From Escherichia phage Ec_Makalu_002: a stretch of DNA of 64,000 nt. A model generated the notes under the pieces. The model was not told the origin of the DNA. It worked only from the letters and a program-made list of their open reading frames with translations, and searched no databases. The DNA is taken from the sequence record MN709127.1. One strand, given 5' to 3'. Shown here piece after piece: positions 6,088 to 39,379 of the stretch. Position 1 is the first letter of the stretch, and every line of letters starts with the position of its first letter. The translations under genes were made by a program, and so were the position numbers.

Positions 6088-6713
6088 AGAATTTTAAGGA
6101 AACTGGATAGACCTGATAATGAATATACACCAGATTCCCCGCATTCGCATTTGATCGGTACTGCCAGCGTGATTTGATTTCTTGTTAGCTCGTCGATCAC
6201 TTCTTCCACTTTATCCGTGGTAAGCATATCCAACACGCGGTCAAAGTCCTGCGCGTTCAGGTCGTCTATATTGAATTGCTGATCGCCGATCACGATATAT
6301 TCGATACATGCAATTACCATCTGCATAATATCAACATCTTCTGTAAACTTAGGTTGACGAAACTTGATTTTTACTTGTCCTAAGTCTAGAATATACGGTT
6401 CGACTTCTGGTATCTGTGTGCGTGAAACATCAAGAGAATATACTTTCTCTTTATTGCATACACCACACACCCAAGTAGCATCAATTTTCATCTTATTGAG
6501 GCTGTGACACCATAAGAGAAGAAAAATATATTCTGCTTCGCATTTCTCTAGCTCTAATGCATTGATCCCCGTACATTCGTATATAATCTCTATAACAACA
6601 TCTGACAGCTTGCCAGTCTCTTTTGCTGCTACCAGTTTTTGAAATTCGCCGAAGGTGAAAGCACGGGCGTGTATCAACTTTTCGCCTATTTGGATCTTGA
6701 AAAAGTATTGCAT
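6084..6713 (-). CDS. 26: baseplate hub protein gp26
   Basis: 209 aa; position between 25 and 51; Cys pairs; paralogous to adjacent gp51. Confidence 0.7.
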   Translation of the reverse strand: MQYFFKIQIGEKLIHARAFTFGEFQKLVAAKETGKLSDVVIEIIYECTGINALELEKCEAEYIFLLLWCHSLNKMKIDATWVCGVCNKEKVYSLDVSRTQIPEVEPYILDLGQVKIKFRQPKFTEDVDIMQMVIACIEYIVIGDQQFNIDDLNAQDFDRVLDMLTTDKVEEVIDELTRNQITLAVPIKCECGESGVYSLSGLSSFLKIL

Positions 6714-6783: not shown

Positions 6784-7554
6784 ATGAATATTATCCGAAT
6801 AAAACTACCGGAAGGTGTACAGCGATTTAAACCATTCACGGTAAAAGATTATAGAGATTTCCTTCTGGTGTCAACTGAAATTAAGATGAATCCAGAAGAA
6901 GAACAAACTATACTGGATGAGCTACTAGAAGAAATATATCCAGACGTAGACCCTGCATTTCGTGAATATATTTTCCTGAACGTTTTTACTAGCTCAATAG
7001 GTAAAACAAAGATACCGCTTTGCTTTACTTGCCCGACTTGCAACAAAGAAAGAAAAATGTTGCTCAACTTACAGGTCGAAGCACTAAAACCAATCGTTCT
7101 GGAGGCCGCAGGGCTTAAAATAACTTTCCGGTATGTGAAACCATCAACCGACTATGCAAAAACGTTTCTAGATGCGATAGAGCGTGTCTCTGATGGTGTT
7201 AATGATTATCTATGGACTGAATTACCGGAAGAAGTTAGAGATCAGGTTATCGATTCAATCTCATTTGCTGAATTTGAAGAAGTTGTTAAGCAGATGCACA
7301 CGATCAAGATCGAACAAAAGATATCTTGCTGTGAAAGTCATGACCTGAAATACATAGGTCTTCTTCCATTATTCAAATTGTTGTTGAATCCAGATGAGTT
7401 ATTCATCTTTTATCGAATAAACCATCTATTGGCAAAATCAAATTATTCTATCAGTGATCTTATGGACATGTTACCCGTCGAGAGAAACATTGCACTGACA
7501 CTGGTCGAGAAAGACGTAAAAGAGGCAAACAATGCAAAGAACGGGGTTTCCTAA
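6784..7554 (+). CDS. 51: baseplate hub assembly protein gp51
   Basis: 256 aa; first gene of the 51-27-28-29-48-54 block; synteny and size. Confidence 0.7.
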   Translation: MNIIRIKLPEGVQRFKPFTVKDYRDFLLVSTEIKMNPEEEQTILDELLEEIYPDVDPAFREYIFLNVFTSSIGKTKIPLCFTCPTCNKERKMLLNLQVEALKPIVLEAAGLKITFRYVKPSTDYAKTFLDAIERVSDGVNDYLWTELPEEVRDQVIDSISFAEFEEVVKQMHTIKIEQKISCCESHDLKYIGLLPLFKLLLNPDELFIFYRINHLLAKSNYSISDLMDMLPVERNIALTLVEKDVKEANNAKNGVS

Positions 7555-34648: not shown

Positions 34649-36892
34649 TTACAGTTTGCAAGATGAACATTCGCTAGCGTCTTCCGTACCATCAGCACCA
34701 TCACGCACGTTAGCGTAATACAGTGTCTTGAGGCCGTAATATTGAGCAAACAGCATATCATCTAACACATCAGCAATATCGACTTTACCAGTCTTATAAG
34801 TGCTTGGATCGTAGGATGTATTGGAACTAATCGCCTGATCTACAAACTTCTGCATGATCGCTGCCAGTGTCAGATAAGGTTTGTTACCTTTCTTGATCAG
34901 TGTCCAAAGCAGGTCAATAACATCAGCATTATTCTCTACGTTCGGAATAACCTGATTAAATTGTCCTTCCTTTGATCCTTTAACCGATACAATCCCGCGA
35001 GGCGGTTCTATTCCATTGGTGCTATTAGATACCTGAGAAGACGACTCACAAGGCATCAGCGCCGATAGTGTACTGTTACGAATGCCATATTTTTTCAGGT
35101 CTTCGCGCAGTTCTTCCCAATCCATCTCATACACCGGGTCAACCAGTTCATCTACTGTCTTTTTGTACCAGTCAATAGGAAGTTCACCGCGACCATAACG
35201 TGTTTCGTGCATCAGTTCGCAAGCGCCCTTCTCTTTTGCTAGCTGCACACTAGCTTTAATCAGAGCATATTGCAAGCGTTCAAACGTTTTATGCGTAAAC
35301 TCGTTAGCGTCTTCATATGTGAAGAAATTATCCGCCAGATATGATGCAAAGTTAGTCACACCAACACCCAGAGAGCGACGTTTCTTAGCTGTCAGTGCTT
35401 GTTTTACAGGATAATCCTGATAATCTAACAGGTTATCAAGTGCACGCACCATAACCATAGCGATCCGCTCTACTTCTTCCATGTTTTCGATATCGAAATT
35501 ACCTAAAACATATGCTGCCAAAGTGCATAGGCTGATCTCTGAATCATCACGACCCATCGGTTTTGTCGGCAGAGCGATTTCACAACACAGGTTAGATTGT
35601 TTAATCGGTGCTACATTACGAATAAACGCCCCGTGATTGTTCATGTTGTCTGTGAACGCTGGATAGATTCGACCAGTGTTAAAACGTTCAATTGCCACCG
35701 CTAAAAACAGGTCTTCGGCTTTAACACGAGTTTTACGCACACTCGGATCTTTTTCCAGTTTTTCGTAAAGCTGGCGGAAACCTTCCTCATCTCGGAAGTA
35801 CAGATCCCACAACAAGCCACCCGCAACATCTGGACTAAACAGAGTAATGTAATCGCGTTTAAGGAATCGCTCTACCATCAGGTTATTAATCTGTACGCCG
35901 TAGTCAAGATGACGAATGCGGTTATCTTCTACCCCTTTGTTGTTCTTCAACACAATAAGACTTTCAAACTCTAAATGCCACATTGGGTAATAGAGAGTCG
36001 CCGCCCCGCCACGAATACCGCCTTGTGAGCATGACTTAACAGCAGTCTGAAAATGTTTCCAGAATGGGATAACGCCAGTATGACGAACTTCACCATACCC
36101 GATCTTAGATCCTTCCGCTCGAATCATACCAGCATTGATACCGATACCAGCACGCTTACTAATATACTTGATGATTGCATTTGCTGTTTCGTTGATGCCC
36201 TGCAATGAGTCATCACTTTCAATCACCACACACGAACTAAATTGTCGTGTTGGAGTACGCACACCAGCCATGATCGGAGTAGGCAGAGAAATTTGCTTAT
36301 TCGCAACAGCATTATAAAAATCAATCACATGTTCAAGTCGATTTTCTGTCTCTTCTTGATGTAAGCACATACCGATCAGCATATAAGCAAATTGCGGTGT
36401 TTCAATGATTTTCTTAGTGCTGCGATCCTGAACAAGATATTTCTCTTTTAACTGCATTGCACCAGCATAGGTCATTTTAAAATCAAGTTTATGATCGATG
36501 AATTTCTCCAGATATTCCACTTCTTCACGGGAATACTTTTGCAGAATTTCGCGATCATATTTTCCGGTTGCAATATTACGCTCAATATGGCTATAAAAAT
36601 CAATCGGTTGGAATTGACCGTATACTGATTTACGAAGCGCGAACATTGCAAGGTTACTTGCTACATATTGATAATCAGGTGTTTCTACAGTAATGTTATC
36701 TGCGGCGACCTTAATCAATACTTTCTGGATATCGTTAGTAGACATACCTTCTGTCAGAAGTGGTTCAACCATATCAAACAATTCATATGGATCAACGTTA
36801 TGACCTTCGGCTGCCGCTTCCAGAATTTTCATTACTTTTTCTTTTTCAAACGGAACAGTCAGACCGGAAGACTTAACAACATTTTTAATCAT
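34649..36892 (-). CDS. nrdA: ribonucleotide reductase large subunit
   Basis: 747 aa; N-terminal ATP-cone region; active-site NLCCEIALPT; C-terminal CSSC. Confidence 0.95.
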   Translation of the reverse strand: MIKNVVKSSGLTVPFEKEKVMKILEAAAEGHNVDPYELFDMVEPLLTEGMSTNDIQKVLIKVAADNITVETPDYQYVASNLAMFALRKSVYGQFQPIDFYSHIERNIATGKYDREILQKYSREEVEYLEKFIDHKLDFKMTYAGAMQLKEKYLVQDRSTKKIIETPQFAYMLIGMCLHQEETENRLEHVIDFYNAVANKQISLPTPIMAGVRTPTRQFSSCVVIESDDSLQGINETANAIIKYISKRAGIGINAGMIRAEGSKIGYGEVRHTGVIPFWKHFQTAVKSCSQGGIRGGAATLYYPMWHLEFESLIVLKNNKGVEDNRIRHLDYGVQINNLMVERFLKRDYITLFSPDVAGGLLWDLYFRDEEGFRQLYEKLEKDPSVRKTRVKAEDLFLAVAIERFNTGRIYPAFTDNMNNHGAFIRNVAPIKQSNLCCEIALPTKPMGRDDSEISLCTLAAYVLGNFDIENMEEVERIAMVMVRALDNLLDYQDYPVKQALTAKKRRSLGVGVTNFASYLADNFFTYEDANEFTHKTFERLQYALIKASVQLAKEKGACELMHETRYGRGELPIDWYKKTVDELVDPVYEMDWEELREDLKKYGIRNSTLSALMPCESSSQVSNSTNGIEPPRGIVSVKGSKEGQFNQVIPNVENNADVIDLLWTLIKKGNKPYLTLAAIMQKFVDQAISSNTSYDPSTYKTGKVDIADVLDDMLFAQYYGLKTLYYANVRDGADGTEDASECSSCKL

Positions 36893-36903
36893 ATTACCTC
36901 ACT

Positions 36904-37206
36904 TCATATATCAAGCGTATTTTCTGGAGTATCGCCGAAAACTCTATTAACGAGATCCGCCAATACTTCACCGTGGCATTTCTTAGGGTAGCAAGTACAA
37001 CCTAAGCGCATATGTCTTAATACTTCTAAATGCGCCCGTGTTATCTCACCATTTCGAATCTTATTATACAACCACTCTTTGTATAATGCAATAGCTTTCT
37101 CTCGTCCGTATTCTTTGGCGGTGTATGGATTTCCCCACATAGTACCACGCTGAATATTAACATCAAAATCGCTATTGTATTTGTTTACAACGCGGCATAT
37201 TTTCAT
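36904..37206 (-). CDS. hypothetical protein, DUF4326-like
   Basis: WGNPY ... LGCTCYPKKCHG pattern as I recall for DUF4326; RBS AAGGAG. Confidence 0.45.
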   Translation of the reverse strand: MKICRVVNKYNSDFDVNIQRGTMWGNPYTAKEYGREKAIALYKEWLYNKIRNGEITRAHLEVLRHMRLGCTCYPKKCHGEVLADLVNRVFGDTPENTLDI

Positions 37207-37218
37207 TTGATACTCCTT

Positions 37219-37236
37219 GCGGGGATTCCTCCCCGC
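37219..37236 (-). other. intergenic GC hairpin (no U-tract) between td and downstream gene
   Basis: GCGGGGAGGAATCCCCGC directly upstream of RBS. Confidence 0.35.
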
Positions 37237-37242
37237 ATTTGT

Positions 37243-38475
37243 TTATACTGCCATTTGAGCGGTGATTGCCGGATGGCTTTGATAGTTGTGAATTTTAAAG
37301 TCTTTCGGAGTTTTTGTCAATACCTCATCTAAAGATTTAAATTCCGGCAACTCAATTGTTGGTTTATCAAACGGAACACGGCTTAACTGTTCCATCACTT
37401 GGTCAAAGTGATTTTTGTAAATGTGAGTATCTCCGCCGGAGAAAATCAGTTCTCCTACTTCGAGATCACACATTTTCGCTATGATGTGAGTTAACAGCGC
37501 ATAGCTGGCGACGTTAAAGGGCAAGCCCAAAAAGCTGTCTACGCTTCGCTGAAACCACATACAAGACAGTTTACCCTCATTGACATAGAATTGCACGAAC
37601 GGATGACATACACCTAATACAGCATTATGTGTTCCTTGTACGTTCCATGAGTCAATAATGATCCGGCGATCCGTTGGATTGTTTTTAATTTGTTCAATCA
37701 CGTTTTGTAACTGGTCTTCCCAAATCTTCGGGCGATAGACATATTCTTCATCGTCTTTAGTGCTCGATGTGTCTATGTCCATACTAGCAAAGATCGTGGT
37801 ATCTGGCGCTAAAATATCCCCGCCTAGATAATCACTATCAAGCAGATAACCGAAATAACCATCATCTACCCATTCCTGGAATCCCCACAAGCAATATGCA
37901 TCATTAACAAAATTAGATTGAGTCTTCCAGTGGTCTGCTACTAAGAATTGATTATATTCAGAATCAAACTCTTCATAACGCATACCACGCCAGATAGCAC
38001 ATAAACGGTCTTCTGTGTCGTTGGTTGGCGTAAAGTCTTCTACCCACGGGTGTTTAAATGTATGTGTATATTTGCTCTTAACGCGCTTAATTTTGATTTC
38101 ACCGTGTGGATGAATCGGTTTGCGTCGCCACGCCATACCATACATATTGCCGACATTATAACCATTGAATCGCAAGGGATTCTTTTCTTTCATATCAAGA
38201 CAGTTGCCGCGCCAAATATCAAATGCTTCCTCGTCAAACTTTCCGCGTGTAATTTCCTGTAAGCGACGGCGGTCAAGTGATCCCTCCATAAACCATAGCA
38301 ATTCGCCAATTACAGAGGCTGTAGCCATCTTTTTAGTGGTCAGTAATGGGAAACCCTTGCTTAAATCAATTCGCATCTCTGTGCCGAATTTAGAGAGCGT
38401 ACCTACCCCCGTTCGGTCTTCACGAGGCCAGCCATTATCAAGAACATCACGCAATAGTTTCAAATATTCTTTCAT
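37243..38475 (-). CDS. td: thymidylate synthase with about 125-aa internal insertion
   Basis: DRTGVGT, DRRIIIDSWN, catalytic CH, QRSVDSFLGLPFNVASYALL, GGDTHIYKNH; 410 aa vs about 265-286 for typical ThyA. Confidence 0.85.
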   Translation of the reverse strand: MKEYLKLLRDVLDNGWPREDRTGVGTLSKFGTEMRIDLSKGFPLLTTKKMATASVIGELLWFMEGSLDRRRLQEITRGKFDEEAFDIWRGNCLDMKEKNPLRFNGYNVGNMYGMAWRRKPIHPHGEIKIKRVKSKYTHTFKHPWVEDFTPTNDTEDRLCAIWRGMRYEEFDSEYNQFLVADHWKTQSNFVNDAYCLWGFQEWVDDGYFGYLLDSDYLGGDILAPDTTIFASMDIDTSSTKDDEEYVYRPKIWEDQLQNVIEQIKNNPTDRRIIIDSWNVQGTHNAVLGVCHPFVQFYVNEGKLSCMWFQRSVDSFLGLPFNVASYALLTHIIAKMCDLEVGELIFSGGDTHIYKNHFDQVMEQLSRVPFDKPTIELPEFKSLDEVLTKTPKDFKIHNYQSHPAITAQMAV

Positions 38476-38743
38476 CCCACATCACCTTTTTCTTATTGAT
38501 TGCTTTCTTACGCAGTTTTGCTACTGTCTCGTCAATATCGATAAAGACAACGCCACGGTTGAATATAGTAGCAGGTCTTGAGATATCGCTATTTTCTTGC
38601 ACAGGAAGCCATGATGCGCTCGCTTCATCATAGAGATATTGTAAACCGTAATAATCTACGGCTACTGCGTAGTTTTCACTGGTAGCCGTCCATAATTGAA
38701 TAATACCGACTTTCATTATTGTTCCCGTCCGCAATGTAAGCAC
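38447..38743 (-). CDS. hypothetical protein
   Basis: ORF track; likely internal start (MKVGIIQLW...). Confidence 0.4.
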   Translation of the reverse strand: MLTLRTGTIMKVGIIQLWTATSENYAVAVDYYGLQYLYDEASASWLPVQENSDISRPATIFNRGVVFIDIDETVAKLRKKAINKKKVMWDERIFETIA

Positions 38744-38809
38744 CGACTACCAGCAAACATCAAAGATTCACCACAATGTTTGCACTCATAATCTGTAAGA
38801 ATTTTCATG

Positions 38810-39379
38810 TTACGCCTTCTTACGTTCTAAAATTTGTTCGCTGATCAGGTAATTATCAAGGAAGTAATTATGTTCTTCTTTGGTTACAAAGTCAAAATAC
38901 AATTCCTGAATCATTTCCTTAGAGATACCAACATCATATTCAAATGGATCGTTGATCCCTGAACGCTGAACATACGTTAACACAATACGGTCCGCAAAGT
39001 CAACCGCTTTTTCAATCAGGGAAGGTCCGCCGATAACACTTACCAAACCTTGCGTTTTCTCCAGGACTTTTAACAGATCCTTTAATTCAATTCCAGTATA
39101 CACATTAGGCTGGTCGCCGTTTTTGGCTTTCGGTGTCGGCTTGCTGGCATCGGTACTAATAACCACATTAAGACGACCTTCCAGTGCTTTAGGGAGACTT
39201 TCAAAGGTATTACGTCCCATTACAACCGCCGCAAGATCAACATCTCCCATAGTGCGCATTTTAAAGTTTTCCATGTCCTTTTTGATTGGACGACCCCACG
39301 GTAAACCACCTTTAAAACCAAAAGCCCAATTTTCATCTGACATTTTAGTGTCACCAATCGCAAATACACATTGAATCAT
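38810..39379 (-). CDS. frd: dihydrofolate reductase
   Basis: 189 aa; GLPWGR-type motif; adjacent to td. Confidence 0.8.
   Translation of the reverse strand: MIQCVFAIGDTKMSDENWAFGFKGGLPWGRPIKKDMENFKMRTMGDVDLAAVVMGRNTFESLPKALEGRLNVVISTDASKPTPKAKNGDQPNVYTGIELKDLLKVLEKTQGLVSVIGGPSLIEKAVDFADRIVLTYVQRSGINDPFEYDVGISKEMIQELYFDFVTKEEHNYFLDNYLISEQILERKKA

Follow-up and report, generated by a model that had tools for sequence, protein, structure and literature searches.

To our knowledge, homing endonuclease genes are thought to survive in essential genes only when they reside in self-splicing introns or inteins, or otherwise when they lie between genes. The td gene of phage T4, which encodes thymidylate synthase (TS), is interrupted by a self-splicing group I intron. 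The td gene of Escherichia phage Ec_Makalu_002 (sequence record MN709127.1), analysed here within a stretch of 64,000 nucleotides referred to as the window, has no intron and encodes a TS (Td) which carries, at a place different from that of the T4 intron, an internal insert of 136 amino acids (aa). This insert is probably a translated and retained piece of mobile-endonuclease-derived DNA in a phage nucleotide-metabolism gene. The source phage is a Krischvirus, that is, an RB49-like T4-type coliphage.

Of the published cases found, the ShiLan domain comes closest. It is a homing insertion located in the gene of a mycobacteriophage DNA methylase, is read through in frame and has no splicing motifs. 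According to prediction it remains part of the host protein and protrudes from it, and its occurrence among close relatives is sporadic; the HNH endonuclease of ShiLan is read in another frame, and what the host frame yields is a hairpin unrelated to it (Arsenault, Gosselin and Gogarten 2025, PMC11855218). The Makalu insert is similar in that it lies in frame in the gene of a phage enzyme and is neither an intein nor an intron. It differs in that the TS frame itself encodes the endonuclease-type module, with no open reading frame (ORF) in an alternative frame, and in that the element is fixed and degenerate. A ShiLan-like out-of-frame endonuclease was looked for in the insert and rejected, the longest alternative ORFs being of 47 aa on the same strand and of 60 aa antisense. 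Sporadic presence as in ShiLan is seen for full-size inserts in another TS clade, whereas the Krischvirus site is occupied in 58 of 58 records.

The insert can also be compared with mini-inteins, whose endonuclease has decayed, and with mobE, which splits nrdA. The likeness would lie in the invasion of a conserved site of a nucleotide-metabolism gene and in the decay of the endonuclease once the element is fixed. Unlike these, Makalu td has no Hint domain, the gene is unsplit and the mature polypeptide would still contain the element. The open-access literature yielded no description of the td insert of RB49-type phages, nor of ThyA enzymes with endonuclease-type inserts.

The thymidylate synthase core and its insert

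The gene and its three parts are the following.

37243..38475, minus strand: td gene, ThyA-type thymidylate synthase of 410 aa plus stop codon (ORF list and translation)
38125..38475, minus strand: N-terminal part of the TS core, residues 1-117, ending in the GNMYGMAWR motif (aligns to ThyA 1-82)
37717..38124, minus strand: the insert, residues 118-253, 136 aa (single block in the family alignment)
37246..37716, minus strand: C-terminal part of the TS core, residues 254-410, with catalytic Cys290 (aligns to ThyA 110-264)

The ORF occupies exactly the first of these intervals, starts with ATG and has no internal stop; its strand had not been given in the original prediction. The Pfam profile PF00303 (Thymidylat_synt) covers the whole of Td from its position 1 to its last, 266, with an E-value of 1.5e-84 and a score of 283.7 bits (the cut-off is 24.3), and ThyA chains in the PDB match it at about 1e-68 (phmmer). 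In the phmmer alignment Escherichia coli ThyA 1-82 corresponds to Td 1-82 and ThyA 110-264 to Td 254-410, the second piece scoring 165 bits. In megablast comparisons td shares 99.8% nucleotide identity with its counterpart in Escherichia phage Ec_Makalu_001 and 97.2% with that in RB49.

Residue equivalences are given in E. coli ThyA numbering, with the register taken from the PDB phmmer alignment, and conservation refers to a family alignment of 29 TS sequences. The invariant columns are R21, E58, Y112, W116 and R117 in the N-terminal core and R270, C290, H291, R310, S311, D313, N321, H351 and Y353 in the C-terminal core. Among them C290 is the catalytic cysteine (C146 in E. coli), and the arginines binding the phosphate of dUMP are R21 (R21), R270/R271 (R126'/R127') and R310 (R166), of which R271 is nearly invariant (at least 90%). 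Other active-site residues are E58 (E58), S311 (S167), D313 (D169) and H351/Y353 (H207/Y209). The specificity position, N321 (N177), holds Asn and not Asp. Asn177 confers specificity for dUMP, and an Asp stands at that position in dCMP hydroxymethylases. By its sequence Td is an ordinary dUMP-methylating enzyme of the ThyA type and it is probably enzymatically active. The original prediction had described a ThyA-type enzyme with all catalytic motifs, which the full-length Pfam match and the invariance of the catalytic columns confirm.

Td resembles ThyA of E. coli and Td of T4 from end to end of its core, in its catalytic and dUMP-binding residues and in its frd-td-nrdA cluster, as in T4-type phages. 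It differs in having a folded domain of 136 aa where E. coli has a loop of about 10 residues (approximately 100-109). The nearest TSs without an insert have 5-11 aa at this site, so that Td is longer there by a net 126-131 aa or so. The extra residues lie in one contiguous block between W116-R117 and D254-Q255, and not in scattered small indels, in agreement with the single internal insertion that had been proposed. A separate expansion of about 10 aa is found upstream of the YG.xWR motif.

The insert can be divided into four segments.

38020..38124, minus strand: segment 1, residues 118-152, a 'KPIHPHG' linker, the long entry beta strand 118-130 and an extended stretch (family alignment and model)
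37861..38019, minus strand: segment 2, residues 153-205, the helical core 'RLCAIWRGMRYE...VADHWKTQSNFVNDAYCLWGFQEWVDD' (model and alignment)
37744..37860, minus strand: segment 3, residues 206-244, a degenerate beta hairpin 'LLDSDYLGGDILAPDTTIF' followed by an acidic loop (model and alignment)
37717..37743, minus strand: segment 4, residues 245-253, the return strand 'YVYRPKIWE' leading into the TS helix that starts at DQLQ (model)

An AlphaFold2 (AF2) model of Td, calculated with the family alignment, reached a pLDDT of 92.8 and a pTM of 0.91. The insert is confidently folded in it, with mean pLDDT values of 74-98 in blocks of 10 residues, the lowest (74) being that of residues 171-180. According to DSSP it consists of a strand (118-130), helices (153-170, 181-184, 186-193 and 199-204) and three further strands (210-213, 228-231 and 245-254), of which the last, the return strand, probably pairs with the entry strand. 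In the model the insert is thus a discrete and confidently folded domain, set in a variable surface loop, which accords with the earlier suggestion of an inserted domain in a variable region. An indel of 12 nucleotides (4 codons; residues 173-176, SEYN; window about 37948-37959, minus strand) falls in the stretch of lowest confidence (171-180). It divides the Krischviruses into those with a Td of 410 aa (Makalu, RB49 and SFHK24) and those with 406/407 aa (JSE, JK32, phiS and G2248).

The module family and its copies in thymidylate synthases

When the insert was compared with phage genomes by tblastn, the best matches outside the Krischviruses were the TSs of the jumbo phages UE-S1 (Asteriusvirus) and phiKp_21 (Alcyoneusvirus), with an E-value of 2e-12. 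A TS-like protein of Vibrio phage D181, annotated as 'HNH endonuclease', matched at 3e-5, and some small genes that stand on their own, with the annotation 'HNH endonuclease' or 'DNA-binding protein', matched weakly. The insert of the jumbo-phage TS in turn matches PHROGs 2081, 953 and 374, all of them 'HNH endonuclease', at 1.7e-33 to 2e-20. A HMMER search with the Makalu insert against 1.84 billion representative proteins gave 12 matches, of which 11 turned out to be TSs or TS-like proteins that carry their insert where Td does; a search with the full-length Td added about 25 insert-bearing TSs. A word-index protein search with the insert alone gave no match. The free-standing homologues, of 196-303 aa, were found using the jumbo-phage insert as query. 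For most of them Pfam gives nothing, and for one an AP2 match (6.7e-6) below the gathering score.

A joint alignment of the TS inserts and the free-standing proteins shows a common architecture. It begins with an N-terminal beta subdomain ending in PS..GVGYLG, continues with a helical core (W..M..RCY...Y..V.VC..W.NF.NF) and a hairpin (LDKD......YSPDTC.F....N), and ends with an AP2-like unit. The free-standing proteins annotated as HNH (PHROGs 2081/953/374; for instance alia gp039 and Bacillus phage LBC2_106) have the SH3-like subdomain, the Cys-rich helical core and the AP2-like subdomain, and the full-size TS inserts have this whole architecture. The helical core and the hairpin of the Makalu insert are homologous to theirs. 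Segment 2 aligns to the W..M..RCY...V.VC..W.NF.NF core and retains the conserved W, W and F, while the R and the RC/VC cysteines are gone, and segment 3 is the counterpart of 'LDKDY.G..YSPDTC.F....N' in intact modules. The profile of six reduced TS inserts aligned with that of 12 free-standing proteins over 67 columns with a probability of 96.1% and an E-value of 3.5e-9 (hhalign). Moreover, the predicted structure of Td matches a member of the free-standing family in BFVD (E 9.6e-4), and the free-standing alia protein matches the window by tblastn solely inside the insert (E 5e-6). No second copy of the module was found elsewhere in the 64-kb window with this query.

Members of the free-standing family occupy 2542 places in 1464 phage records; a genome often has more than one copy, and the copies typically lie between replication genes. 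In phage alia a 198-aa member (L004 2372-2968) directly follows a gene annotated as 'DNA polymerase I / putative DNA polymerase, part I', and in Vibrio phage D17 (L015) a 165-aa member lies between the DNA polymerase and DNA helicase genes. Both positions are typical of homing endonuclease genes, and in its distribution the family behaves as free-standing genes of that kind do. The motif of the module is D-K-D, as compared with the canonical D-H of HNH enzymes, and its similarity to PacI is weak; the module may be a putative nuclease itself or only the DNA-binding part of one. It is very likely that the Makalu insert originates from such an endonuclease-type module.

Inserts at the same site were found in 25 TSs of 401-613 aa. 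The TSs of UE-S1 and phiKp_21 (517 aa) have an insert of 245 aa at exactly the Makalu site, and modules occupy the same codon-level site in T4-like, jumbo, Vibrio and other metagenomic phages. The fuller modules, from jumbo, Vibrio and metagenomic phages, are of 194-284 aa, and the inserts form a graded series from full modules of about 245-284 aa down to the 136-aa form. A linker P-x-x-PHG...R(K/V) is common to nearly all insert-bearing TSs, as is the conserved 'V.RP.I' of the return strand. In insert-less relatives the loop measures 5, 11 or 28-33 aa, the 5-residue loop of P0039 reading DWRGV. The flanks of the site encode the most conserved motifs of TS, YG.xWR and DQ, and are a target of the kind that homing endonucleases favour.

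The TSs P0034 and P0035 have inserts of 281-284 aa and cores 83-89% identical to insert-less TSs. The core of P0034 is nearer to that of the insert-less P0039 (89%) than to that of P0035 (83%), and the inserts of P0034 and P0035 are only 55% identical. In a neighbour-joining tree the two stand apart among about 90 insert-less sequences. The contigs of P0035 (L011) and P0039 (L012) are syntenic (AAA, DUF2201, ..., DHFR, TS, epimerase, ..., methyltransferase). Their DNA alignment stops at 6366/6354 and restarts at 7211/6362, which is a clean presence/absence of 844 nucleotides at the insert site. Such presence/absence between syntenic genomes within one shallow TS clade is the pattern of a mobile element. 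The original prediction had named homology to endonuclease modules, as a sign of a mobile element, among the findings that would speak against its reading of the insert; both that homology and occupied and empty alleles in syntenic phages were found.

A deep branch of insert-bearing TS-like proteins comprises that of D181 (L003 2138-3571), P0003, P0006, P0007 and P0010. Their core motifs have diverged, with YPVAFR or YPEMWR for YG.xWR, CHN.FQ, and SFYNIWSY in D181, and they may be pyrimidine-modifying paralogues rather than plain TSs. The GenBank label 'HNH endonuclease' of the D181 protein hides a TS fold. Among the BFVD matches of the Td model there are many phage and giant-virus TS entries of 426-752 aa, against a norm of about 280 aa, for example in Pseudomonas phage 201phi2-1 (457 aa) and Aeromonas phage PS1 (752 aa). 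Viral TSs may often contain insertions or fusions, and these may be of several kinds.

Reduction of the Makalu copy and its possible explanations

Two subdomains are absent from the Makalu insert, the SH3-like one, to which the GVGYLG motif belongs, and the AP2-like one. In segment 1 the SH3/Tudor-like beta subdomain is missing, and after the hairpin of segment 3 the helix and the AP2-like subdomain of full modules are deleted. The family-conserved positions, defined as those conserved in at least eight of nine free-standing proteins, number 26; full-size TS inserts retain 18-25 of these and the Makalu insert 11. The substitutions include R to E, D-K-D to D-S-D, YS to LA, C to T and N to D. 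The net charge of the insert is -11 (-9 in segment 3) and its isoelectric point (pI) 4.8, whereas most full inserts and free-standing proteins have a pI of 8.3-9.6. In being embedded in an enzyme, in having no flanking subdomains, in its few retained positions and in its acidity the Makalu copy is unlike the free-standing proteins. Because the flanking subdomains are deleted, the conserved Arg, Lys, Cys and Asn are gone and the insert is acidic, it has most likely ceased to cut or to bind DNA and would be biochemically inert.

The insert is present in all 58 Krischvirus-type records matched by megablast over at least 80% of the td length. Reduced inserts of 127-145 aa also occur in other T4-like phages (P0014-P0017), whose cores are 62-68% identical to that of Makalu Td; the reduction is therefore old. 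A recent foreign origin is not seen in the base composition, the GC content being 40.9% in the insert and 40.4% in the whole window. Among Krischvirus pairs the ratio of non-synonymous to synonymous substitution rates (dN/dS) is mostly about 0.15-0.3 in the insert, with extremes of 0.07 and 0.5. In the TS core it is about 0.01-0.04, with 0.12-0.16 for the C-terminal half of JSE. Taken separately, the N-terminal core gives about 0.01-0.04 in 20 of 21 pairs (the pair of the window and G2248 gives 0.178, from only five differences), and the C-terminal core about 0-0.05 among Krischviruses other than JSE. The insert is under purifying selection, approximately ten times weaker than that on the TS core. 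Among six reduced inserts of 40-77% identity 21 columns are invariant, including DAYCLWG.QE.VD and APDT..F.

The td gene of JSE (L005 347-1570) is a mosaic. Its N-terminal core and insert are close to those of the other Krischviruses, with synonymous divergence (dS) of 0.1-0.2, whereas its C-terminal half from residue 254 differs from all of them, with a dS of about 0.8-1.1 and about 45 non-synonymous differences. This places a recombination breakpoint at the 3' edge of the insert. In the metagenomic protein P0001 the pattern resembles that of JSE td.

The history that we propose begins with a phage module of the homing-endonuclease type, which would have invaded in frame, long ago, the loop that connects the YG.xWR strand with the DQ helix on the surface of TS. 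When intact, such a module is made up of four elements. They are a beta subdomain of SH3/Tudor-like type, a helical core which contains Cys and has a beta-beta-alpha region weakly similar to PacI (D-K-D...YSPDTC...N), an AP2-like subdomain, and two strands that lead back into the host protein. The insert would escape both RNA and protein splicing, so that the mature Td of about 47.6 kDa keeps it. In the Krischvirus lineage and its relatives deletions would have taken both flanking DNA-binding subdomains, and the central core would have lost its Arg, Lys, Cys and Asn positions and turned acidic. The remnant, compact and of about 15 kDa, would stand on a stalk of two beta strands and project from a permissive loop owing to which it is tolerated, while the TS core works as usual. 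It would now be held by purifying selection, probably since its folding and packing contribute to the stability of the enzyme. We consider it likely, in sum, that the insert is a passenger domain which is not spliced out, has been inactivated and has become part of the structure of an active enzyme, and we infer that the module entered TS by homing.

The splicing of the insert, as an intein or as a read-through intron, would leave a mature Td of normal size, about 32 kDa. In its favour, mobile introns are classically found in the td genes of phages (T4 td, I-TevI; PMC2988022), and inteins are known in the ThyX-type TSs of phages (bioRxiv 10.1101/2025.01.02.630785). However, neither the Td protein nor the insert alone has a Hint or intein match in Pfam at E of 1 or below, and the junctions (WRR/KPIH and KIWE/DQLQ) present K118 and E253/D254 and not Cys/Ser/Thr and His-Asn. 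No Rfam family, group I introns included, was found at E of 1 or below in 36800-38900. In addition, the insert is conserved in frame as amino acids across phages at about 35% identity, with synonymous changes in excess, and in the AF2 model it is a domain with beta strands at both entry and exit. The chance that the insert is spliced out is practically negligible, and the original prediction of a continuous ORF with neither intron nor intein holds. That prediction had, moreover, suggested that the insert may be a domain in the small-domain region of TS, perhaps for protein interactions or altered substrate handling. The TS loop that follows YG.QWR is a known variable loop, longer in eukaryotic TSs, and the insert-less relatives vary in its length (5, 11 or 28-33 aa), which speaks for an elaboration in situ, specific to the lineage and unrelated to mobile elements. 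Nevertheless the insert is significantly similar in sequence, profile and structure to phage proteins of the free-standing HNH-annotated family, which are not connected with TS in any way, and the graded series leads from modules of about 245-284 aa to the 136-aa form. We regard an origin in situ as very improbable, and nothing was found in support of altered substrate handling; the insert may, however, serve protein interactions. An equally slight probability is given to a Makalu insert which still acts as a homing endonuclease and cuts insert-less td genes during co-infection. The full-size TS inserts, with their 18-25 of 26 residues, may be active, and the breakpoint of JSE td at the 3' edge of the insert (dS of about 1 downstream) is what co-conversion during homing would give. 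Against this, the Makalu copy has only 11 of the 26 positions, having lost the K of D-K-D, the Cys, the Asn and GVGYLG; it has neither the SH3-like nor the AP2-like subdomain and is strongly acidic, and its fixation in the genus leaves no empty target alleles among the 58 records.

An exaptation, in which the acidic remnant of the same module has been recruited for a new job in Krischvirus Td, is the main alternative, although a less likely one. Docking to the machinery of dNTP synthesis or replication, docking to a basic DNA-binding protein and regulation of the enzyme are possible candidates. Such a role would fit the fixation of the insert in every Krischvirus-type record, its maintenance in reduced form in the distant T4-like P0014-P0017, its confident fold and a dN/dS mostly of 0.15-0.3 and clearly below 1. 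It would also fit the presence of blocks as conserved as the core, with DAYCLWG.QE.VD and APDT.F among their invariant columns, and a systematic shift from basic to acidic, which suits a changed binding partner better than random decay. However, nothing in the data points to a partner, a motif or a site. The reduced inserts differ in charge (P0014 has a net charge of 0, and P0020 and P0008 are basic), and the lineages have deleted different parts, P0017 being also without most of the return segment, which resembles ongoing erosion. The constraint itself can be explained simply if an essential enzyme has to carry its embedded domain in a folded and soluble state.

Several observations have to be set against the reading of the insert as an inactivated passenger that arrived by homing. 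The strong conservation of 'DAYCLWGFQEWVD' and 'GDILAPDT.IF', with a dN/dS well below 1, exceeds what a pure passenger would need and points towards some function. The Makalu insert alone matches no Pfam family, and its best PHROGs match (E 0.38) is not significant, so that its assignment to the endonuclease-type modules draws on transitive and profile-profile comparisons of sequence. The neighbour-joining tree of the TSs carries no support values. Finally, most insert-bearing TS cores also have common features in the N-terminal flank (RFNGYN.GNMY), and for these one old insertion inherited vertically, together with whole-gene transfer, is as good an account as repeated homing.

Gene neighbourhood and significance

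Four further genes lie around td.

38810..39379, minus strand: frd, dihydrofolate reductase, the functional partner upstream of td (Pfam DHFR_1, 7.3e-22)
38447-38743, minus strand: small ORF of 98 aa with GTG start and no Pfam match, overlapping the first 29 nucleotides of td (ORF)
36904-37206, minus strand: DUF4326 ORF of 100 aa, between td and nrdA (Pfam, 6.5e-23)
34649..36892, minus strand: nrdA, large subunit of ribonucleotide reductase, 747 aa, downstream of td (ORF; nrdA is annotated at the syntenic position in RB49 and JSE)

The order frd, small ORF, td, nrdA is the same as in RB49 and JSE and forms a nucleotide-metabolism cluster of the T4 type. A counterpart of the 98-aa ORF, annotated as a hypothetical protein, overlaps the start of td likewise in RB49, JSE, JK32, phiS, SFHK24 and G2248, and translational coupling of this ORF with td is possible. 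Shigella phage SFHK24 and two distant T4-like contigs, L013 and L017, likewise have the DUF4326 ORF between td and nrdA, whereas in RB49, JSE, JK32, phiS and G2248 td is followed directly by nrdA; the presence of this ORF is therefore polymorphic within the genus.

In the T4-like metagenomic contig L017 (4689-7876) nrdA is in two pieces, of 476 aa and 324 aa, split by a gene of 237 aa which lies 2 kb from an insert-bearing td. The nrdA of Aeh1 is a known case of 'genes-in-pieces', which this arrangement resembles. The 237-aa gene has a canonical HNH motif (HHVIPR...N...H) and is mobE-like; it was considered as a relative of the td insert module and rejected as unrelated.

With regard to annotation, the size of 410 aa of Td in RB49-type phages is no error, and some TS-like genes with an insert carry the label 'HNH endonuclease' or 'hypothetical protein'. 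The insertion site in TS appears very tolerant and could be of use in protein engineering. More broadly, the Makalu fossil points to a family of in-frame, non-splicing inserts. It is conceivable, although we hold this only tentatively, that the modules embedded in TS are a so far undescribed kind of homing element, which enters in frame at the WR/DQ-coding site of thyA/td without intein or intron, the full-size jumbo and Vibrio copies perhaps being still mobile and the Krischvirus copy a fixed and possibly exapted fossil. The TS inserts look like a third solution next to splicing elements and intergenic positions, in which an endonuclease-type module is translated within an essential enzyme at a permissive loop. 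The stages seen range from near-intact copies (194-284 aa, basic, with 18-25 of the 26 conserved positions) to fossils (127-145 aa, the Makalu copy being acidic and retaining 11), and the series would offer a natural set in which to follow how selfish DNA becomes a permanent protein domain.

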